Below the pieces are notes generated by a model. It saw only the letters and a list, made by a program, of their open reading frames with translations, had not been told where the DNA came from and did not search any database. Shown piece after piece: positions 32,507 to 41,103 of a stretch of DNA of 62,891 nt. Position 1 is the first letter of the stretch; each line of letters opens with the position of its first letter. The position numbers and the translations under genes were made by a program. Source of the DNA: a virus (lineage: Duplodnaviria; Caudoviricetes); IMG/VR virus record IMGVR_UViG_3300027754_000089, positions 1 to 62,891 of that record; one strand, written 5' to 3'.

Positions 32507-33372
32507 CAGTTAACCCCTTGCCTAAACTGAGGAGTACGGTACGCATCTTGACGCTCCAACCCATCACCCAGACGTTTAGCCAATGCAAGGGCTTCCATGA
32601 ATTTGGTGTTGTACAACTGCATCATGTCGGCTTCACCCTTCATAAAGGTATAAGCCTCGACCAAGGAAGCATACAGTAGCACAGTATCAAAGTTATCCCC
32701 AAGCCAAGTCTGACCACTGGTGGCAACGGTAATAGACTCAGGATAATAGTAAAAATGCAACTCTGCATTGTAATTAATATCTGGTGTTGGCCCAAGGATA
32801 AAACTTAACTCATTGGTGATAACACTATTTGTTACAGTGGGGCCAAACAAAGCATAATACTGGGGCATACCCGTAGATGTAGGAGTTGGGTACGCTTGCC
32901 TGATAAAGTTAACATCTTTGTTCAACAAAAACAAATACTCGCCCTGGAAGGTGATTGCTCCAGATACCGTAGCACTATTGGCTATTGACAAAGAAATAGT
33001 ATTTGTGGATATGGCCGTCACATACGCGCCTGTACCAATCCCTGTGCCTGTTACATATTGACCTACTACGATACCTGTAGAGATTGACACCGTTATGGTA
33101 AACGCACCTGACGTTCCTGTAGCCGTAGGCGCGCTTGCAGGAGCTGTATAAATAGCTAAAGAGTACGTAGACAAGTAATCGTTTGGACAACTTAAATACT
33201 TATTGCCCGCAGTTAAAACTCCCGTCATGTTTTTACGCAAAGACGGAAATTGAACAGAGTTATAAATACGCTGTTCAGCTTGCGTGATAAAGACGGGCAA
33301 ATCCGCTATGAAAGTAGTTTCATAGTTTTGGGTGTAATCCTGAATTGCTGTCTTTAACTGCGTATAGTTCAT
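32506..33372 (-). CDS. Head-tail adaptor / tubular protein A-like with inserted beta module
   Basis: MNYTQLKTAIQDY...GMPQYYA...GPTPD...LLYASLVEA. Confidence 0.7.
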   Translation of the reverse strand: MNYTQLKTAIQDYTQNYETTFIADLPVFITQAEQRIYNSVQFPSLRKNMTGVLTAGNKYLSCPNDYLSTYSLAIYTAPASAPTATGTSGAFTITVSISTGIVVGQYVTGTGIGTGAYVTAISTNTISLSIANSATVSGAITFQGEYLFLLNKDVNFIRQAYPTPTSTGMPQYYALFGPTVTNSVITNELSFILGPTPDINYNAELHFYYYPESITVATSGQTWLGDNFDTVLLYASLVEAYTFMKGEADMMQLYNTKFMEALALAKRLGDGLERQDAYRTPQFRQGVN

Positions 33373-33376
33373 GTCT

Positions 33377-33616
33377 TTAAGCCATTGGCCCTCTAGCCAT
33401 TAAACCTTTAGTTGCTGCACCTGTACCACGCACTTTGATGCCTGATGTTTTTACACCGGGATATTCATTGCTGTGGGTATTGGCAACAGACACGTTGGCG
33501 TCTTTCATGTATTTCTTGTTGCTTGGGCCAGTGGTCTCACTGATGCCCACTTTTTTACCGCTCATGGTGTGAGGGGCAGCATAAGCAGACGCAGGTAAAT
33601 TGTTGATCTTAGCCAT
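33377..33616 (-). CDS. Small basic late protein
   Basis: Ends RGTGAATKG; coupled to neighbour. Confidence 0.65.
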   Translation of the reverse strand: MAKINNLPASAYAAPHTMSGKKVGISETTGPSNKKYMKDANVSVANTHSNEYPGVKTSGIKVRGTGAATKGLMARGPMA

Positions 33617-33816
33617 TATCGACCCCTTCCGGTATTGCGTTGATTGGCTGCACGAGCCATGTTGCGACCCATTGTCATCATCGCTTTACTTGTAACACCA
33701 CCAGCGGCAAGCTTGAGTTTGGTACCCTTACCGCCTTTATGCTCTTGCGAGTCGTGCTGTTTAAAGGCTTTTTTAATCATAGCCTTGTCTTGTTTCGTGT
33801 CTTCTTTGTCCATCAT
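33616..33816 (-). CDS. Small basic late protein
   Basis: AGGAG RBS; contains LAAGG. Confidence 0.65.
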   Translation of the reverse strand: MMDKEDTKQDKAMIKKAFKQHDSQEHKGGKGTKLKLAAGGVTSKAMMTMGRNMARAANQRNTGRGR

Positions 33817-33822
33817 TAACTC

Positions 33823-34212
33823 CTACGTTGTAACTATCGTAACTGTACCAACTTGCACCTCGGGCATCAAGTAGTTTGGTGTCAACACCGTATCAAAACT
33901 ACTTGCCCCACCCACAGGGTTCCACCCCCATTGAAATACTCGACTACCTTCACCCTGGTAGCCATCTGCCAACAAGCCAGACGCCACATAACTTAAATCC
34001 GGCCTTGGGTTCCTGACCGCTTGTGGGTCATCAACTGGATACATACCCAATTGCAACTGCGGCTGATCTGGATCCCAACACTGAGGACATACCAAAAGAT
34101 TGTAAACCTTTGTCTTGATAATCTCTCTTTTAAGTTCCTTTAACTTATAGCGAAAGCCACATCGATCACACTCCGCAATCGCATTCTTGCCGGAGGAAAA
34201 CTTATTGCCCAT
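33823..34212 (-). CDS. Zn-finger protein
   Basis: CDRC...CPQC. Confidence 0.7.
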   Translation of the reverse strand: MGNKFSSGKNAIAECDRCGFRYKLKELKREIIKTKVYNLLVCPQCWDPDQPQLQLGMYPVDDPQAVRNPRPDLSYVASGLLADGYQGEGSRVFQWGWNPVGGASSFDTVLTPNYLMPEVQVGTVTIVTT

Positions 34213-35159
34213 TAAGAGCCACCACCGATGTACATCTGTCTAGGCACAAACCTGACAGCCGCTTTCTCTTGATCCTCCTGGGCCGCATTGTTCCAAGCCT
34301 CGTCATATTGAGACTTTAAAACCGTCAAACGCTCCAAACCATTTGGTACTTTAAGCGCAATGTAGTAAGCCAAGCCAGCGGCTAGGCAAGGAATGAACCT
34401 GAACGGTACATCCATCGTGTTTACACCGTTGCCAGCGTCTTGCAAACGACGCATACGCCAATAAACCAACTGGTAGGACTGTGACCCATCAGGAGTTGGC
34501 CAAACGGTCACGCTTTGCTTCTGAGAGTAGTAGATCAAGTCGCCAACACTGTGTGCGGCGGCTGTTGTATTGCTTTGACCACGTACACAATTCAAAAGAT
34601 ACGCTGGCGCAGTAGATGTGGCCGCTTGATACTCGTTAAATGCTATCAATTCAGTACCAATTTTGATAAAACCTGCGTTGGGCACGTTGACCAAGGAGGT
34701 AATTGGGATGGAAGTGGTTGTTGTGGTGATTGCCGCTTGCAAAGTGCCCGGCAAAAGGGACTCTTGTGCAGATAAACGCTGAATCCATATCTGGATGGGG
34801 CGTCCTTGCGTTAATTTGTTGGGGATTGTGGCGTAAGTGGATACGCTGATACGCGTAATGGTCAAATCTGACTGATTACTGGTGTTGTTTGCGTTGGTTC
34901 TGATGACATGTTCCAACAAATCCACCGTATCGTCAGGCAAAGCATAGGTTGGCTGGCCTTGAACAAGCGTAATCATGTCTTGCTCAAACGTCCACATGTT
35001 GACACCACGGTTTGCCCAGTCAGCAAACATTAAATTCATCGACCTGCGGGCAGTTCTAAGGTCATAACCCGTACGCATCTCAGAACCCGCACGCTCAAAC
35101 GCCTCTTCCACCATCTCAGAAAGGTCAAGATTGAAAGCAGAAACGCTTGAAGTGGTCAT
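34212..35159 (-). CDS. Head completion/adaptor protein (P22 gp4-like position)
   Basis: EEAFERAG...TARRSMNL...WPTPD...AGLAYY. Confidence 0.7.
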   Translation of the reverse strand: MTTSSVSAFNLDLSEMVEEAFERAGSEMRTGYDLRTARRSMNLMFADWANRGVNMWTFEQDMITLVQGQPTYALPDDTVDLLEHVIRTNANNTSNQSDLTITRISVSTYATIPNKLTQGRPIQIWIQRLSAQESLLPGTLQAAITTTTTSIPITSLVNVPNAGFIKIGTELIAFNEYQAATSTAPAYLLNCVRGQSNTTAAAHSVGDLIYYSQKQSVTVWPTPDGSQSYQLVYWRMRRLQDAGNGVNTMDVPFRFIPCLAAGLAYYIALKVPNGLERLTVLKSQYDEAWNNAAQEDQEKAAVRFVPRQMYIGGGS

Positions 35160-35356
35160 TATTTTTTACTTTTTTTAGGTTTCCACCCAACTGGGGTCAT
35201 ACCCACGGGTTCTCCTGTTTCAGAAAACCGCATGTACTGCGCCGTCTTTCCGCCTTTAGCATACTGGGTAAAGTCAGTGTCATCCCGGCGAGCTTTCTTA
35301 GCGCCTTTGGGCATTTTGGAAGGGAGAATGTCTCCCATACCGCGTGAGGCTATCAT
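35159..35356 (-). CDS. Small basic late protein
   Basis: MIASRGMG..., contains YAKGG. Confidence 0.65.
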   Translation of the reverse strand: MIASRGMGDILPSKMPKGAKKARRDDTDFTQYAKGGKTAQYMRFSETGEPVGMTPVGWKPKKSKK

Positions 35357-35359
35357 GGT

Positions 35360-35731
35360 TTAACCAGCTTTGCCGCCGTGCTTCATGCCTAAAGGAGTGC
35401 TGCCAGACATTTTAATCATGGTGCCTTTGGTTTTGCCTTTGGTAGCAAGACCATCACGGCTAGGAGAAGCAGTTTTTACAGAACCCATTTTTGCGGAAGT
35501 CATTCCACCGTTTGCCATTTTGCTCATACCTTTTTTCTTAGCCATCATTGCCATGAAGCCGGGGTTCATTTTAGAAGCCATAGTATCACCACCTTTTGAG
35601 AATTTTTTGCCTTTATCGGCGTTGTTAAAATCTTGTCCCACGGATTGCGGAACTCCTACCTTCTTTGCAAAAGCTGGATTATGAGCAATTGCTTCCATAA
35701 AACGATGCTGTTTGCCACTTGTACTTGGCAT
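35360..35731 (-). CDS. Small basic Met/Lys/Gly-rich late protein
   Basis: Start MPSTSGKQ overlaps upstream stop; three xxxGG motifs. Confidence 0.7.
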   Translation of the reverse strand: MPSTSGKQHRFMEAIAHNPAFAKKVGVPQSVGQDFNNADKGKKFSKGGDTMASKMNPGFMAMMAKKKGMSKMANGGMTSAKMGSVKTASPSRDGLATKGKTKGTMIKMSGSTPLGMKHGGKAG

Positions 35732-35904
35732 TACTTTCTCCAAGCCTTAACCGTATCGGTTTCCCAAATACGTAAGCACAACCACACAATGGTCAGTACA
35801 CCACCAACAAGACCCACTACAGGGGGGAACCACTCCATAAAACCACCTAATCCTACGACTACTGCGGCTCCATCAGCCATTACTTTTACATCGTGATTGT
35901 CCAT
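35731..35904 (-). CDS. 57-aa two-TM membrane protein (not in ORF track)
   Basis: MDNHDVKVMADGAAVVVGLGG...LTIVWLCLRIWETDTV; coupled on both sides. Confidence 0.7.
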   Translation of the reverse strand: MDNHDVKVMADGAAVVVGLGGFMEWFPPVVGLVGGVLTIVWLCLRIWETDTVKAWRK

Positions 35905-36248
35905 TATATGTACCTGCCTTTGGTTTTGCCCCGCTGGGCTATCCCATCAGCGCGGCTAGATGCAGTTATTTTTCCACCTTTACTCATAGGCACAGAGTAA
36001 TATCTGCTTCCACGTTTTTCAATTTTAGAGCCTCTATTTTTTTCTGCTGCTTCGGCTTTATTAAAGGTTTCATGTTGTTTGCCTTTTAAAACAACATAAC
36101 TGTTTTCTGGCAAATCATTTGCAATTCGTTCATCATCGGATGTTGGAGCGACAGACCCCCAGTGCTCACTTTTTTTCTTGGGCTGCATGTTGTAGGCTTT
36201 TGCTGTTTCATAATCAAAATCACTGCCTTCTGGGTCAAATGTAGCCAT
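35904..36248 (-). CDS. Hypothetical protein with C-terminal MSKGG...RADGIAQRGKTKG tag
   Basis: AT-rich unique body plus shared C-terminal motif. Confidence 0.7.
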   Translation of the reverse strand: MATFDPEGSDFDYETAKAYNMQPKKKSEHWGSVAPTSDDERIANDLPENSYVVLKGKQHETFNKAEAAEKNRGSKIEKRGSRYYSVPMSKGGKITASSRADGIAQRGKTKGRYI

Positions 36249-36249
36249 A

Positions 36250-36495
36250 TCAACAATTCCAAGCCCGCAGGCTTTTGTTAATCCGGCTGTTTGGGTCTTT
36301 CGCTGTTTTCTCTGAAGTCAACTTCGCTTTCATGCCTGACATTCTTGCACAGAATGACTTCTTCCTTGATCCGCCCTCTGGTTGGGGAGGCTTTAAATTC
36401 ATCCCCTCCTTCTTTGCGGATGCCCGACCTTTGGCGTTTAAACCGCCTTTCGGATTCTTTCCTTCTTTGCGTTGCCATGCTGGGGACTTAGCCAT
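36250..36495 (-). CDS. Small basic late protein
   Basis: GGLNAKGRAS...RKKSFCARM...SLRAWNC. Confidence 0.7.
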   Translation of the reverse strand: MAKSPAWQRKEGKNPKGGLNAKGRASAKKEGMNLKPPQPEGGSRKKSFCARMSGMKAKLTSEKTAKDPNSRINKSLRAWNC

Positions 36496-36784
36496 AGAAC
36501 ACCGTTATACCAGTCACAGTACCCGTACTTGTTGTCAAATACAACCCAGTGGAAGCCAAAATACCTTCTCCGGGAATTAACACGGAAGTCGTATTTGGTG
36601 TGCCAAGGCTTGCTATGTCCATTGTGTATAAAACCTCAGCCGAAGCACCACCATCTCGAATTTCAAACGTGGCTGCTGTACTGGCTTTCGGAGCCACAAC
36701 AAAACCACGTAAACGAGTACGCCCTGTATAGTAAGAACCAGCCGCACTAAGGTGTGCGCTTTTAACGTCTGTTTGCATCGTCAT
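36488..36784 (-). CDS. Small virion structural protein
   Basis: AGGAG RBS; beta-rich, IPGEGIL...TVFYG. Confidence 0.65.
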   Translation of the reverse strand: MTMQTDVKSAHLSAAGSYYTGRTRLRGFVVAPKASTAATFEIRDGGASAEVLYTMDIASLGTPNTTSVLIPGEGILASTGLYLTTSTGTVTGITVFYG

Positions 36785-36797
36785 GTGATGCTCCTAA

Positions 36798-37331
36798 TTA
36801 GTTCTGTGTGGCAGAAGGCGTTAATGCACCGTTTGAATTGGCTACCATGTAACGGAACGTAATCTGAACAATACCAGCAGTGCTTGGTGAGCCTGTGGTA
36901 AATGTTGGGGTTGCGGACACAATTACGTCAGTACTACCAATACCAATTCCATTGGGAGCTGCGGTACTAGAAGCGCCAGCATAAGCTGTTACTTGGGTGG
37001 TTGTAAGCGTTGGGCTTTGACGACCAGCAGTCAAAATAGTCGTTGAAGGATAATACAAGTTAGCAGTTGTACCGTCCCCAATTGTCATTACTGCGGCTGT
37101 AACTGTGCCTGACAAAGTAGTCAAGGTATCAACAATTACGTCAACAATATGTGAGCCAGCGGGTAATGTAAAACAAGTAATGGCGGTGGCAGAAGTAGCG
37201 CCCACCATGTTTAACTGGACAGTCTGACAAACCAGTGTTGCGCCAGTATTTTGAATCGTACCAGCAGTTGTGCCAGTTGTGTTTTTTACAGTGCCCAATA
37301 ACCAAGGGCCAAGGTGAGTTGCGAATCCCAT
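36798..37331 (-). CDS. Minor capsid/decoration protein
   Basis: Follows capsid; Thr-rich; TLPAGSHIVDV. Confidence 0.6.
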   Translation of the reverse strand: MGFATHLGPWLLGTVKNTTGTTAGTIQNTGATLVCQTVQLNMVGATSATAITCFTLPAGSHIVDVIVDTLTTLSGTVTAAVMTIGDGTTANLYYPSTTILTAGRQSPTLTTTQVTAYAGASSTAAPNGIGIGSTDVIVSATPTFTTGSPSTAGIVQITFRYMVANSNGALTPSATQN

Positions 37332-37415
37332 GAGGATCTCCTTACATACAAGTTAAGCGTATCAGTCGGTATGTCGTCTGCCGGGACAGTTTGATACGCC
37401 GGAAAGCCCGGAATA
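37332..37415 (-). ncRNA. Candidate structured cis-regulatory leader (chained pseudoknot)
   Basis: Three perfect complementary pairs CCGGG/CCCGG, GCGTATCA/TGATACGC, ACATAC/GTATGT. Confidence 0.55.
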
Positions 37416-37429
37416 GTTCTAATATACAC

Positions 37430-37462
37430 CAAAAGAAAAGGGGGCACAAGCCCCCTTTTCTA
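37430..37462 (-). terminator. Intrinsic terminator after major capsid gene
   Basis: GAAAAGGGGGC-TTGT-GCCCCCTTTTC followed by TTTT. Confidence 0.85.
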
Positions 37463-37467
37463 CTCTA

Positions 37468-38376
37468 TCAAGAACCTGCTGATCCCCAGATTCCCAATGG
37501 GTCTGACCAACCGAATGAATAACGCTCACGAGCTTTGTAACGGACGTTGCCCGTGTCGAAGTCTCCATCCATTGAGTTAACCAAAGCCATACGCTCAAAG
37601 TGCTTCAAGCCGTTAGGTACGTCAGTCGTCAAATACCAACCGTTTGAATCGGTCAAGAAGTGATTAACACAGTAACCTTCAGGGATTGCGCCCATTTGTT
37701 TCAATGCGTTGATGTCATTGTCAGTAGTGCCGACGCGGAGTTCGGTATCTAACAGACGTTTTGCAACGAACATTAAAGCTGGGGGAACAATCAGCTTACG
37801 TGGTTTAGCGGCGATCAAAAGTCCACGCTCATCTGTCCAAGCAGCGATCTGAATAACGGCGGCTTCCAAGGAAGTCTCGTTCAAATCAACTTGGGTTGTA
37901 GGAGTGTTGGAGTTTGTACCACCGTTCACCAATGGGTGAGCAGTATTGAACAAAGAAACATTGTCGCCACCAAGGTAAGCCGCGCTGAAACCGTTATTGA
38001 CAACGGAAGCAGCTTTAACTTGCTTGGTGTACGCCATAGCACGGGCCAACGCTTTGGTATAACGTGCAGACAATGAGTCATACAAGTTATCTTCCACAGC
38101 TTCTTCAGTGATGGAGAAGCCTAAAGCAATAGTCTCGTGGTTATAGCGAGCCGTGAAAGCTTCTTGCGCATTGTCATAAGCAATGGAAGAACCTTCATTT
38201 TTAACAGGAGCAGCGGAGAAACCAGCAAGCTTGGTCTCTTCTTCAAAGCTACGCTCAGATTTCTCTGTTTCGTAAAACTCTTTATGCTCTTCGCCGTAAC
38301 GTGCATACTCTAAACCGAACAATGCGTTCAAGCCTGGGAGTAACTCTTTTAATAGTTGTGCGCGGGAAATAGCCAT
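37468..38376 (-). CDS. Major capsid protein
   Basis: MAISRAQLLKELLPGLNALFG..., DFDTGNVRYKARERYSFG; strong codon bias; followed by terminator. Confidence 0.9.
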   Translation of the reverse strand: MAISRAQLLKELLPGLNALFGLEYARYGEEHKEFYETEKSERSFEEETKLAGFSAAPVKNEGSSIAYDNAQEAFTARYNHETIALGFSITEEAVEDNLYDSLSARYTKALARAMAYTKQVKAASVVNNGFSAAYLGGDNVSLFNTAHPLVNGGTNSNTPTTQVDLNETSLEAAVIQIAAWTDERGLLIAAKPRKLIVPPALMFVAKRLLDTELRVGTTDNDINALKQMGAIPEGYCVNHFLTDSNGWYLTTDVPNGLKHFERMALVNSMDGDFDTGNVRYKARERYSFGWSDPLGIWGSAGS

Positions 38377-38389
38377 TTTATATTACTCC

Positions 38390-39253
38390 TTATACACCAG
38401 TAGTATTGTTCATGCTATGGAAGTTTCCGTTCCATGTCACTAATACTTCAGGGAAGCCAACAAAACTCACTGATTGTGAGGCAATAGTAACTGCGGAGTT
38501 TAAAGTCAATGTTGTTGAATTGACGTTAGTGACCGTAATATAGTTACCTTGAGCACATCCAGTACCTGTAGCAATTACTTGCATACCAGCCAAAATTGCG
38601 CTGTTTGCTGCACCTAAAGTCAAGGTTGCTGAAGAACCTGAAGTAGAAGCAGTAGCAGAAACAACAACGGCGCTTTCAGAAACAACACCAATAACACGGA
38701 AAGGTGCTGCGGCTGTAACACGCGTGTTACCTGTACCGTTAGAAACAACACCACCTGTTAAGGCAAGGTATGAATCACCAGTAGTTGTAGAACCAAGGTT
38801 GGCTGTCAATGGGTACATATTACTACCAACAAAAGCTGGGTTCACATAACCGACAGTTACGTTGAGTGTATTAGCCAGAGAAGTAGCTTGACCAGCAACA
38901 ACAGCTTTAAACACAACGCGAGGATCATCAATTACGTAAGCAACAGCATTGTTTGATACGGTACTTGCAGGCCAGTATTGACTCTGAATGATTTGACCCA
39001 TTGAGTTTGTATATTGGCAACCAAGAAAAACACCTATCGTACCTGCAATTGCGGCAGTGGGACTTGATGCGGCAGAATAGCTACATGTAACAATTGAACC
39101 ATTTGCGGTCAACTGAACAATATCGCCATAGTACAAATTGGTACCGTAACCAGTAGCAATAGTGTACATACTGGTGGAACCAACATATGCTAAACCACCA
39201 TACTCTTTCAGTGGTTTTAGCCCGTAGGGGGCTGAGACGCTTGGATAAGCCAT
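38390..39253 (-). CDS. Capsid-associated (cement/decoration) protein
   Basis: Directly upstream of capsid; APYGLKP...GVFLGCQY. Confidence 0.65.
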   Translation of the reverse strand: MAYPSVSAPYGLKPLKEYGGLAYVGSTSMYTIATGYGTNLYYGDIVQLTANGSIVTCSYSAASSPTAAIAGTIGVFLGCQYTNSMGQIIQSQYWPASTVSNNAVAYVIDDPRVVFKAVVAGQATSLANTLNVTVGYVNPAFVGSNMYPLTANLGSTTTGDSYLALTGGVVSNGTGNTRVTAAAPFRVIGVVSESAVVVSATASTSGSSATLTLGAANSAILAGMQVIATGTGCAQGNYITVTNVNSTTLTLNSAVTIASQSVSFVGFPEVLVTWNGNFHSMNNTTGV

Positions 39254-39269
39254 TTAAGGACTCCTTAAG

Positions 39270-39722
39270 TTATTTAGAACCAGAACCAAACCCAGATCCG
39301 CGACTGACTGTTGACTTGCGGTCAGAGAACAGCGGCATCCTTGGATCATTGTTTCGCATAAAGTGATTGTCAACTGAGTCCATCTGATTTTGCGCTTGTT
39401 TGTTGAAATACTCGTCACGGGCTTTGGCTTGTTCAGAAGGTTGTTTGCATAGCATCAACCCACCAATCTCGACGTTGCCTGTCTTTTCATTCGCCTCAAG
39501 CATAAGCTCTGGATGGTCTACTGCCTTCACTGGCACCCAGCCATCGCGCATCTTACGAGACACGTTGGTTGGATCGGCTTGTCCCATAATATGCGTCGCT
39601 ATCCAGCGATAGACATATCCGGGTTCCGGTGTCGGATCGGGCAGTGTGCTCGATGGTGTATATACATACCGAGCGTTTTTGTCGCGTGAAGTTGTGTCAC
39701 GATTTGATCTGTTATCAGCCAT
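39270..39722 (-). CDS. Head morphogenesis protein, function unknown
   Basis: GYVYRWI...GWVPV...GGLMLCK; position between scaffold and capsid. Confidence 0.65.
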   Translation of the reverse strand: MADNRSNRDTTSRDKNARYVYTPSSTLPDPTPEPGYVYRWIATHIMGQADPTNVSRKMRDGWVPVKAVDHPELMLEANEKTGNVEIGGLMLCKQPSEQAKARDEYFNKQAQNQMDSVDNHFMRNNDPRMPLFSDRKSTVSRGSGFGSGSK

Positions 39723-40659
39723 TTTGAGCCTCCAATTTAGCTACTTGTGCAGCGTATTGCTGCGGGGTTAATCCAAACTTTTTTGCCAACGCAACTTGCG
39801 TGGTAGTTAGTTTGACCTTTCCTGCGGACGTAGAACGACCAGCAGGCGCAACAACAGTTGAGGGCCGTCTATTGACTTCAACAGATTTTTTGTCTTCAGA
39901 ACCACCGAATACTTCAGGGAACTTCGACTTTATGCGAGCATCAATTTGCTCGAAATACTCATCATTGCGGGGGTCTACACCTCCGTTGACTAGTTTTTGA
40001 TGCAGTCCTAGTGCGTAACTGGTAACTTCCTCAAACCCCGATGCACCAAACCACTGGTTTTTTGCCTGCCAGCGCAGTGACTTTTCGTCTGGTTGAACCT
40101 TTTGAGGTTGGGTATACTGCGTTTGTACCTCATTCCTTTCCTCTTGTAAAGGGGGAACACGATAATTTTTTACAGTTTCTAGTTGCATTTTAGCATCAGT
40201 CAAGGCTTCTTGAGCTGCAATGATGGCGTCTGTGTCAAATGCTTCTTGAGCTTCTTTGTATTGTTTGCGAGCCAACGTAAGGTCTGCTTCTGCTTTTTCC
40301 TTAGCGGAACTAACAAATGCTTCTTGCCCTACATTAACGCTCTTTTTAAGACTTTTATTCTCGTCTATCAGTTGTTGTGCAAGACGCTCAAGTTCTTGTC
40401 GCTCACGTTCTACCGAGTCTGCTCTACGGCGTTCATCATGTCTAGCGTGTGTCAACTCTTTGATACGTTTTTTAACACCGTCTGAATAACTGTCAAGTTC
40501 GTCATCGCTTGGGTCTTCAACTTCCCTGTTCAAGGGCTGGCGGCCACGATCACGTTCAGGGGTATCGTCAACAATTTCAATATCAACGTCTTCACCTTCA
40601 ATTTCGATGTCAATCTTTTTGTCTTCGATTTCATCGGGAAACTTGAATTTATCTTCCAT
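39715..40659 (-). CDS. Capsid scaffolding protein
   Basis: Acidic N-terminus, coiled coil, C-terminal LTTTQVALAKKFGLTPQQYA helix. Confidence 0.75.
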   Translation of the reverse strand: MEDKFKFPDEIEDKKIDIEIEGEDVDIEIVDDTPERDRGRQPLNREVEDPSDDELDSYSDGVKKRIKELTHARHDERRRADSVERERQELERLAQQLIDENKSLKKSVNVGQEAFVSSAKEKAEADLTLARKQYKEAQEAFDTDAIIAAQEALTDAKMQLETVKNYRVPPLQEERNEVQTQYTQPQKVQPDEKSLRWQAKNQWFGASGFEEVTSYALGLHQKLVNGGVDPRNDEYFEQIDARIKSKFPEVFGGSEDKKSVEVNRRPSTVVAPAGRSTSAGKVKLTTTQVALAKKFGLTPQQYAAQVAKLEAQNG

Positions 40660-40668
40660 GATTTTCCT

Positions 40669-41103
40669 TTAAGCGCGGGTAATCCCACGAGGGTCTTGCA
40701 CAACACATTCAACTTGGTCATCATTGATTACTCTGAATTCCTTGCCAAATATCTTCAATCGCGTACCTGTGTAGGTACGTACCACCACGAAATCCCCTTG
40801 TTTGCACCAAGGCCCACTAGGAAATTTAGCTGTGTCTTTATAGGCGTCTTCTCCTAGCGCCATGACAAACAGCGTGGTTGTACCCATCTGTTCTTGTTTG
40901 GCGTAGTCCATAGGACGCATTAAATCTAACTCCGTGCCATCTAATTTGTTAGATATGTCAGGCACGACGCAGAGTATTTTGTACCCTGTTGGAACGGGCA
41001 AAGCCGTTGCTCTATCTTCTATAGGTATGTCTTCATCAGGCATATCCATAGGAAAAATTTGTTCAGGCAGGCTTACGCCCGGTGGAAGAATAAGATCACT
41101 CAT
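40669..41103 (-). CDS. GroES-like co-chaperonin
   Basis: PTGYKIL...GPWCKQGDFVV..YTG..KIFGKEFRVINDDQV. Confidence 0.8.
   Translation of the reverse strand: MSDLILPPGVSLPEQIFPMDMPDEDIPIEDRATALPVPTGYKILCVVPDISNKLDGTELDLMRPMDYAKQEQMGTTTLFVMALGEDAYKDTAKFPSGPWCKQGDFVVVRTYTGTRLKIFGKEFRVINDDQVECVVQDPRGITRA

Follow-up and report, generated by a model that had tools for sequence, protein, structure and literature searches.

Does the short stretch between the major capsid protein gene and the next gene of a tailed-phage genome encode a functional RNA, and if so, what does this RNA do? The question was raised by the first-pass annotation of IMG/VR virus record IMGVR_UViG_3300027754_000089 (62,891 bases, the complete record, 99% complete; hereafter “the window”), which had described, at positions 37,332 to 37,462 on the minus strand, three perfect helices interleaved in the order a, b, a′, c, b′, c′, the last abutting the Shine–Dalgarno (SD) sequence of the gene at 36798, and had proposed a structured RNA with two crossing pseudoknots. 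The helices are present exactly to the base, with the AAGGAG of the SD sequence coming directly after the GTATGT of c′ (Table 1), and comparison with relatives, which supplies the decisive evidence, confirms the flagged stretch as an evolutionarily conserved RNA fold. We call it the cement leader, after the capsid cement (decoration) protein gene that follows it. We believe that it is probably a cis-acting leader in the 5′ untranslated region (UTR), tuning the stability and the translation of the cement protein message, a function that we read from the fold and its position.

Taken by itself, the sequence of the window is suggestive. Among 3000 dinucleotide shuffles of the 84-nucleotide (nt) leader, 31 contained three perfect helices in a chain, none shorter than 5 base pairs (bp), and one reached the observed 19 bp, which for a 63-kb window read on both strands is suggestive and not decisive. 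A nested-only fold of 37320–37470 is unexceptional in energy (z −1.60; 13 of 200 shuffles fold as well); pseudoknots are invisible to nested folding. The case therefore rests on the relatives.

The capsid protein has at least 600 relatives in IMG/VR, from which 80 loci with a capsid identity of 84–90% were kept. The leader was detected by blastn-short in 32 of these loci and a homologue of the 177-residue protein encoded behind it in 12: conservation is stronger in the leader than in the gene that it precedes. Further loci were fetched by a core-motif scan, and a simple parser yielded 111 distinct 75-nt elements. A covariance model containing only helices b and d (R1, from 43 gapless sequences) matched 65 of 81 sources (the window and the 80 loci) at an expectation value (E) of ≤1, and the model rebuilt from these matches (R2) found the element in 74 of the 81, as well as in the phages HTVC023P and DSL-LC04 and in two genome contigs. 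In total, R2 gave 78 matches in 89 sources, all with E ≤ 0.0021 (the E-values of both models are rough), all on the gene strand and each the only one in its source; run over the entire 62,891-base record, the covariance model likewise found a single copy. Seven of the 81 sources were missed by R2 (L010, L045, L056, L060, L062, L063, and L079): the sequences of L062 and L060 break off too soon, in L056 a divergent copy can be recognized by eye, and the others have extra genes behind the capsid gene, so that the locus may stop short of the cement gene.

Covariation was sought in alignments of these capsid-downstream regions, and it was found in all four helices, so that the structure put forward by the first-pass annotation is borne out by both pairing and compensatory change. 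Alignment A2 (31 sequences, MAFFT), fitted to no structure, has 97.4% pairing in b, c, and d, both partners having changed in 12 of the 16 pairs, while slid controls reach 11–42%; the MAFFT alignments (A1 and A2) were used for b, c, and d only because they misplace gaps in helix a. Two larger alignments, A4 with 60 distinct sequences and A6 with 73, were both fitted to helices b and d only. In A4, helix a is 94.9% paired with 4/5 pairs changed on both sides, and helix c 88–91% paired with 6/6. In A6, 94.8% of the cells of the whole structure are paired, in comparison with 68.7% in shuffles and 22–39% in slid controls, 21 of 23 pairs have changed on both sides, the cells with double changes number 446 (shuffles: 120), and the covariation score is 0.668 (shuffles: 0.199), with none of 500 shuffles reaching the observed pairing or score. 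Taken singly, helix a is 96.4% paired (4/5 pairs changed on both sides), helix b 98.6% (8/8), stem d 100%, and helix c, to which the alignment was not fitted, 88–90% (6/6). The count for helix a is lowered by 10–11 rows in which the model clipped its first C, while the percentage paired in seed A3 is biased, as this seed was chosen for pairing.

The transcribed strand is fixed by the G·U pairs (UG in 12 and GU in 16 rows at two pairs of helix b) together with the 78 matches on the gene strand. Helix a occurs among the relatives as CCGGG/CCCGG, CCAGG/CCTGG, CTGGG/CCCAG, CCGAG/CTCGG, CTAGG/CCTAG, CCTAG/CTAGG, CCAAG/CTTGG, and CCGGA/TCCGG. Such changes bear directly on the possibility that the stretch acts as DNA, with CCNGG repeats bound by a protein or with the whole serving as a recombination anchor for the swapping of cement genes. 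One clade does contain three CCNGG-like motifs, the leader borders a hypervariable gene at which assembly graphs branch, and genes for GIY-YIG homing endonucleases are inserted just upstream in some relatives. A DNA site does not account for compensatory changes that maintain four helices though the sequences differ completely, for G·U pairs, which are A·C on the opposite strand, or for the replacement of CCNGG by CTAGG, CCTAG, and CCAAG with matching partners, and we regard a function at the DNA level as very improbable.

In the refined fold, the full order of strands is a, b, d, a′, d′, c, b′, c′, and the loop that helix b closes takes up both the 5′ and the 3′ tail. Stem d (CWG/CWG, 3 bp) forms a hairpin presenting a′ in its 6-nt loop; among the 73 sequences its middle pair is UA in 33, AU in 31, CG in 8, and GC in 1, and an A·A mismatch flanks it in 67. 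Relatives have an extra inner pair in helix b (GC in 38, AU in 17, and GU in 5 of the 73), at which the window copy, as the sole A·C row, has the mismatch A37391/C37365. The near-invariant unpaired bases are the two adenines of the mismatch flanking stem d, the AC that follows d, and the GA in front of b′ (G in 69/73 and A in 72/73). Helix c is the weakest helix, with a mean duplex energy of −4.8 kcal/mol vs. −8.9 for b and −6.8 for a. R1 had paired the C that follows stem d with the purine that follows b; this pair was rejected, the C being invariant whatever its partner (GC 44, AC 18); the purine pairs instead with the base preceding b′.

A further feature is a second CCGG (a″) behind the 5′ strand of helix a, which could pair with it locally. 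It occurs in 31 of the 73 distinct sequences, with 3.2 expected from shuffled loops, and is present in every row that has CCGGG, CCAGG, CCGGA, or CCGAG as helix a, changing along with it (CCAGG/CCTGG, CCGAG/TCGG); a further 10 rows begin CGGGG, the first C having been clipped by the model, and are scored as lacking a″. As a″ overlaps the outer end of b, the a/a″ and b states are mutually exclusive. A local CCGG-loop-CCGG hairpin was rejected as the general fold, since a″ is missing from the CTGGG, CTAGG, CCTAG, and CCAAG types (0/31 rows) and from L111, L112, L116, and L258. It is retained as an alternative that some clades may use.

The carriers form a very large group of aquatic phages from lakes and the ocean, with a few cultured members. 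By capsid identity, the nearest cultured relatives are the Planktothrix phage Pag-Yong1 (72%), the Pelagibacter phages HTVC023P and HTVC027P (63%), DSL-LC04 (62%), and the Roseobacter phage CRP-902 (54%). The element stands before gp41 of HTVC023P (R1 37 bits, R2 44.5 bits) and before the cement gene of DSL-LC04 (R1 17.8 bits, R2 40.5 bits), where all four helices are complementary with different letters and the layout of terminator, −10 box, and leader is unchanged. Both were found by the covariance models only; a blastn search with the leader through 50,697 phage records gave no match. The covariance models gave no match in Pag-Yong1, CRP-902, HTVC027P, or 023Pt_psg01. By eye only, HTVC027P (L385:2960–3052) and 023Pt_psg01 (L386:2950–3030) have a reduced leader before a cement-type gene, a b/c pseudoknot comprising helix b, the inner hairpin, and a helix c (CCTAG/CTAGG) with the SD sequence in its 3′ strand, and lacking helix a. 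Pag-Yong1 (L261:3904–4007) has a G+C-rich 105-nt gap with two unrelated hairpins before a “minor capsid protein” gene, and in its lineage the leader seems to have been replaced. Among genome contigs, a 14-base core pattern occurred in 120 stretches, of which two are true elements with a cement-type open reading frame (ORF) behind them: L314, a contig of a Verrucomicrobia metagenome-assembled genome, and L338, from an assembly labelled “Gammaproteobacteria bacterium”. Both are short and resemble phage DNA that was binned together with cellular genomes, and so they cannot serve as evidence of a host.

The first-pass annotation had allowed that the motif might already be catalogued from the environment, which the searches did not support. 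Rfam 15 has no match at the gathering score anywhere in the window; at E ≤ 10, the 11 weak matches within 37100–37700 all lie on the terminator hairpin (37417–37474) and none on 37334–37411. A full-text literature search found no description of the motif in the accessible text of the papers retrieved, including PMC10690425, PMC12753301, PMC9599517, and bioRxiv 10.64898/2026.09.22.753630. The closest in kind is PMC10690425 (Fremin et al. 2023), which according to the text available predicted 8,495 structured RNAs (“DNAVirus_X” motifs) from IMG/VR. Like the cement leader, these are covarying motifs of intergenic IMG/VR origin upstream of phage genes; unlike it, those named in that text precede GP20, GP32, terminase, and similar genes and none a cement or decoration gene, and the method described there handles nested structures only, whereas the leader is pseudoknotted. 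Being so abundant, the cement leader may well be among the unnamed entries of that set.

Which gene, then, does the leader serve? The 177-residue protein has no family match in Pfam or PHROG. Its AlphaFold2 model, built with 35 relatives (predicted local distance difference test, pLDDT, 78.5), has a confident β core behind 30 N-terminal residues of low confidence. The best Foldseek match of this model is chain 7eel_H of the Pam1 capsid (E 1.6e-4), and VIA-align gave Z-scores of 11.7 to 7eel_H (root-mean-square deviation 2.4 over 114 aligned residues), 11.2 to 8h89_J of the GP4 capsid, 10.6 to 7dn2_1 of KHP30, and 9.5 to 7dou_4 of KHP40, a “trimeric cement protein”, with generic jellyrolls at 7.8 or below. 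A sequence profile run against PDB chains found the “Cement protein gp15” of KHP30 (E 0.0013), and the depositors of DSL-LC04 annotated the gene at the same position as “cement protein”. Modelled fold, profile, and position thus agree in identifying the product as a jellyroll capsid cement protein of the Pam1/GP4/KHP30/KHP40 type, encoded beside the capsid gene. In GP4, cement and capsid protein are reported to be equimolar (540:540).

The link to this gene is exclusive: the leader occurs as one copy per phage record or locus, only before cement genes. Nearly all of 154 downstream reading frames open with a cement-type N-terminal arm (MxxTTFSGP, MGFATHLGPW, or MALxTT..WRS), about 12 of the 154 being mis-picked upstream ATGs, and behind these shared arms the protein bodies vary widely; 16 of the downstream proteins searched against PHROGs and Pfam returned only one weak match, to a PHROG of unknown function. 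Contigs from two lake RNA libraries (X1 and X2) show different gene bodies attached to the leader and the ~26 opening codons. The leader stretch is present in a lake metatranscriptome library as contigs, which are no proof of a transcript and whose depth and gaps neither measure expression nor mark transcript ends. Strains differ in the body of the cement gene (36801–37253 of the window), which has been exchanged, but share the leader, the ~26 opening codons, and the 3′ end of the capsid gene: a contig of library X2 (record 11) spans 37253–37539 and has 451 nt replaced by 421 others, and in library X1 a loose end at 37339 runs into another allele. That the exact contigs of X1 stop at 37329 and resume at 37510 we take as an assembly branch at a stretch shared by strains and not as a finding. 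The first-pass annotation had suggested a translational switch or protein-binding element for the stoichiometry of the post-capsid structural genes; the tie to translation of the next gene is backed by the fixed junction of helix c and SD sequence described below, but it concerns the cement gene specifically and not the post-capsid genes in general. Its other suggestion, a structural or packaging RNA, found nothing in its favor, and the element is always placed as a 5′ UTR.

Both edges of the leader hold a fixed place relative to their surroundings. At the 5′ edge, the proposed promoter TTGTGC-17-TATATT, embedded in the capsid terminator, is present; its spacer lies within the 16–18 nt expected of a sigma-70-type promoter, it matches the consensus at 3/6 positions of the −35 and 5/6 of the −10 box, and a simple promoter scanner does not list it because its −35 is weak. 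Across the relatives, a −10 box with 5/6 matches precedes the leader in 56 of 60 distinct upstream contexts (2 of 65 control windows 300 nt upstream), and the distance from the end of this box to helix a is 7–10 nt in 59 of the 60; in the window, the leader starts 9 nt past the box. A −35 element with at least 4/6 matches is found in 20 of the contexts, with an exact TTGACA in 9, while the TTGTGC within the terminator occurs in 16. The spacing between −10 box and helix a holds whatever lies upstream, behind the terminator just as behind an inserted gene that comes with a −35 of TTGACA; where a gene separates the leader from the capsid terminator (L008, L054, L057), the promoter has stayed with the leader. 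With the promoter conserved and travelling with the leader in this way, the RNA is predicted to start 1–3 nt before helix a, at about A37414 in the window. We thus predict a sigma-70-type promoter of conserved position, whose spacing would leave 1–3 unpaired nt at the 5′ end of the RNA.

As to the inserted genes themselves, the ORF L054:4023–4727 encodes a homing endonuclease with GIY-YIG and NUMOD3 domains (Pfam E 5.7e-11 and 2.1e-12), L008:3164–3901 has a weak GIY-YIG match below the cut-off, and L057:4026–4622 has no Pfam family match. Behind each of the three, promoter and leader are intact.

At the 3′ edge, among 140 distinct elements with a recognizable SD sequence, the SD 5-mer comes immediately after c′ in 95, overlaps it in 36, and lies 1–7 nt off in 9, and it is wholly inside c′ in L039, L038, L002, L029, and L058. 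The pseudoknot thus reaches or overlaps the SD sequence in 131 of 140 elements, a placement at the ribosome-binding site of its gene that autogenous operators share. The fixed promoter distance and the fixed SD junction together make the entire UTR, beginning at about +3 and ending with the SD sequence, a single compact fold.

A fixed distance to the promoter would also suit an element of transcription or processing, which would either modify RNA polymerase close to the promoter, as an antitermination RNA like put, or set the 5′ end of the message through self-cleavage or resistance to nucleases, and a double pseudoknot with a tied 5′ end is reminiscent of nuclease-resistant and ribozyme folds. 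For antitermination there is little to act upon: a consensus scan of the gene strand found no strong terminator-like site in 33000–37331, and the capsid terminator, upstream of the leader, is the sole such site on the minus strand of 33000–41000. For self-cleavage, the Rfam ribozyme families have no match in the window, and the order a, b, d, a′, d′, c, b′, c′ is not known to be that of the HDV-like, twister, pistol, and hatchet ribozymes. Furthermore, the tight SD junction points to translation, and we consider this explanation improbable.

The two edges and the fold suggest the following course of events. The cement message would start at its own sigma-70-type promoter, partly inside the capsid terminator and about 2–3 nt before helix a. 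In the fold, helix b (8–10 bp) closes a loop in which hairpin d and one strand of helix c, the 5′ one, are held; the 5′ tail folds onto the loop of d, forming helix a and the first pseudoknot, and the 3′ tail onto the inner strand, forming helix c and the second. With its 5′ end buried by helix a, the RNA would hinder decay that depends on this end. The SD sequence borders the weakest helix, c, on its 3′ side or reaches partly into it, and the balance between the open and closed states of this helix would govern initiation by the 30S subunit. The outcome would be a fixed or tunable cement-to-capsid output from a long-lived message, for a protein required in quantities similar to those of the capsid protein.

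Simpler counterparts of such a leader are well known. In the 5′-terminal mRNA stabilizers, namely the ompA 5′ UTR hairpin, the Bacillus subtilis aprE leader, and the phage SP82 stabilizer, a structure lies a few nt from the 5′ end (here a predicted one) with a strong ribosome-binding site close behind. These are simple hairpins, in contrast to a four-helix double pseudoknot that has conserved junction nucleotides and precedes one gene only.

Several points weigh against our preferred reading, that of a leader tuning stability and translation. A simple 5′ hairpin would suffice for stabilization, and a generic stabilizer or enhancer would be expected on other highly expressed late genes too, while this one is exclusive to cement genes. 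So elaborate a fold, with unpaired A, AC, and GA that hardly vary, hints at some specific partner, which that reading does not name. The promoter and the start site rest on consensus and conservation only, the SD sequence lies outside helix c in most members, so that gating is possibly weak, and that reading gives no role to the competing a/a″ hairpin, found in about half of the family including the window.

A rival explanation is a translational operator run by a trans-acting phage protein, which would stabilize helix c, block or trap the 30S subunit, and thereby defer cement synthesis until after capsid maturation; the candidates are free cement protein, capsid protein, or the very basic small proteins encoded just downstream. 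Pseudoknotted operators in mRNA leaders are familiar from T4 gene 32, from Escherichia coli rpsO, bound by S15, and from the α operon, bound by S4, where the pseudoknot is double. Like the cement leader, these are 5′ UTR pseudoknots at the ribosome-binding site of one gene, in the case of gene 32 a phage gene; unlike it, they have other sequences and helix orders, whereas here both ends enter the loop of a central helix, and the product here is an acidic cement protein and not one that binds nucleic acids. The exclusive link to cement genes, the complex fold with its near-invariant unpaired nucleotides, an SD sequence adjoining or inside helix c, and a leader conserved with the first ~26 codons while the gene body is exchanged (the 451 nt for 421 of the X2 contig) would all be natural in an operator. 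The proteins themselves fit poorly: the 101 cement proteins examined have a median isoelectric point of 4.9, 3% lysine plus arginine, and a net charge of about +1 in the first 30 residues, and such acidic, lysine- and arginine-poor proteins, unlike RNA-binding repressors, make simple self-repression unlikely. Their bodies, moreover, belong to numerous families unrelated in sequence, whereas the RNA core does not vary. We hold an operator to be a minority possibility.

Alternatively, the knot could itself be a sensor, a new class of riboregulator that would delay translation of the cement gene until helix c is opened or locked by some late signal, either a phage protein freed or consumed in capsid maturation or a small molecule. 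With a/a″ as the alternative state, cement synthesis would be coupled in this way to the appearance of expanded, DNA-filled heads. We regard this as rather unlikely. A bolder variant would see in the leader, with both ends threaded into one fold, a bacterial counterpart of the exonuclease-resistant viral RNAs.

A further rival is a small-molecule riboswitch of a new class, in which a metabolite or an ion would stabilize the pseudoknot and alter access to the SD sequence. The leader's size of about 80 nt, the pseudoknots, the conserved junction nucleotides, and a 3′ strand beside or over the SD sequence are all in keeping with this, as is its occurrence in phages of distant hosts (a SAR11 phage and lake phages), which a universal ligand would permit. 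The preQ1-II, preQ1-III, SAM-II, and SAM-V riboswitches are similar in being compact pseudoknots whose 3′ strand adjoins or includes the SD sequence, a geometry in which the stability of the knot could govern translation. The cement leader differs from them in having an extra 5′ pseudoknot and an inserted hairpin and in preceding a single structural gene, with no metabolic link; none of the four, nor any other riboswitch model, is among the Rfam matches at E ≤ 10, and its conserved unpaired positions are few for an aptamer. A riboswitch is in our view quite improbable, and we leave a similarly slim chance that none of the explanations given here is the right one.

Whichever way it works, the cement leader is a structurally unusual RNA, with both tails in the loop of a central helix, absent from Rfam and carried by phages that include the cultured Pelagibacter phage HTVC023P. 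It is an RNA device tied to one virion component, the leader and the N-terminal arm being kept while the gene body is hypervariable. If the leader does set or sense cement output, it would be a first example of control at the RNA level of capsid decoration in tailed phages, and expression engineering would gain a 5′ UTR module that is both compact and portable; should it be a stabilizer and nothing else, it would still be a new double-pseudoknot family for RNA structural work.

Table 1. Positions of the cement leader and its neighbouring features in the window
Feature	Position	Strand	Details
Major capsid protein gene, 302 aa	37468..38376	−	ORF; PHROG 371 “major head protein”, E 8.6e-22; Pfam PF25209 Phage_capsid_4, E 2.5e-13
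Intrinsic terminator of capsid gene	37431..37460	−	Stem 37460–37450 / 37445–37435, loop TTGT, then T run
Sigma-70-like promoter (predicted)	37421..37449	−	−35 TTGTGC 37449–37444 (terminator loop and stem), 17-nt spacer, −10 TATATT 37426–37421
Double-pseudoknot leader, 78-nt covariance-model match	37334..37411	−	R1 98.2 bits, E 3.7e-19; R2 87.2 bits
Helix a, 5′ strand CCGGG	37407..37411	−	Pairs with CCCGG 37381–37385; 2–3 nt past predicted RNA start
Second CCGG (a″), alternative local partner of helix a	37399..37402	−	Overlaps outer end of helix b; clade-specific
Helix b, 5′ strand GCGTATCA	37392..37399	−	Pairs with TGATACGC 37357–37364
Stem d, CTG 37389–37387 / CAG 37380–37378	37378..37389	−	6-nt loop carries a′ CCCGG (37385–37381); conserved A·A mismatch flanks
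Helix c, 5′ strand ACATAC	37369..37374	−	Pairs with GTATGT 37344–37349; within loop closed by helix b
Helix b, 3′ strand TGATACGC	37357..37364	−	Nearly invariant GA just before
Helix c, 3′ strand GTATGT	37344..37349	−	Adjoins SD sequence directly
SD sequence AAGGAG 37343–37338, spacer, ATG 37331–37329	37329..37343	−	Read from sequence and ORF
Cement (decoration) protein gene, 177 aa	36798..37331	−	Jellyroll core and conserved N-terminal arm

The capsid gene is directly upstream of the leader region, with its stop at 37468, and the hairpin of its terminator is G+C-rich, with a 12-bp stem in minimum-free-energy and centroid folds alike. The arrangement of terminator, promoter, and leader recurs in many relatives.

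Just upstream of the capsid gene, 38390–39253 on the minus strand encodes a 287-residue protein rich in threonine, serine, alanine, and glycine that has no family in Pfam or PHROG, and isolates have shorter hypothetical proteins at the matching position. Downstream of the cement gene, 35360–36495 on the minus strand holds several small ORFs that are very rich in lysine and glycine, one of them for an 81-residue DUF6321 protein (PF19846, E 8.7e-20) that has further matches at the C termini of far longer PHROG families. These small lysine- and glycine-rich products may be internal or ejection proteins.

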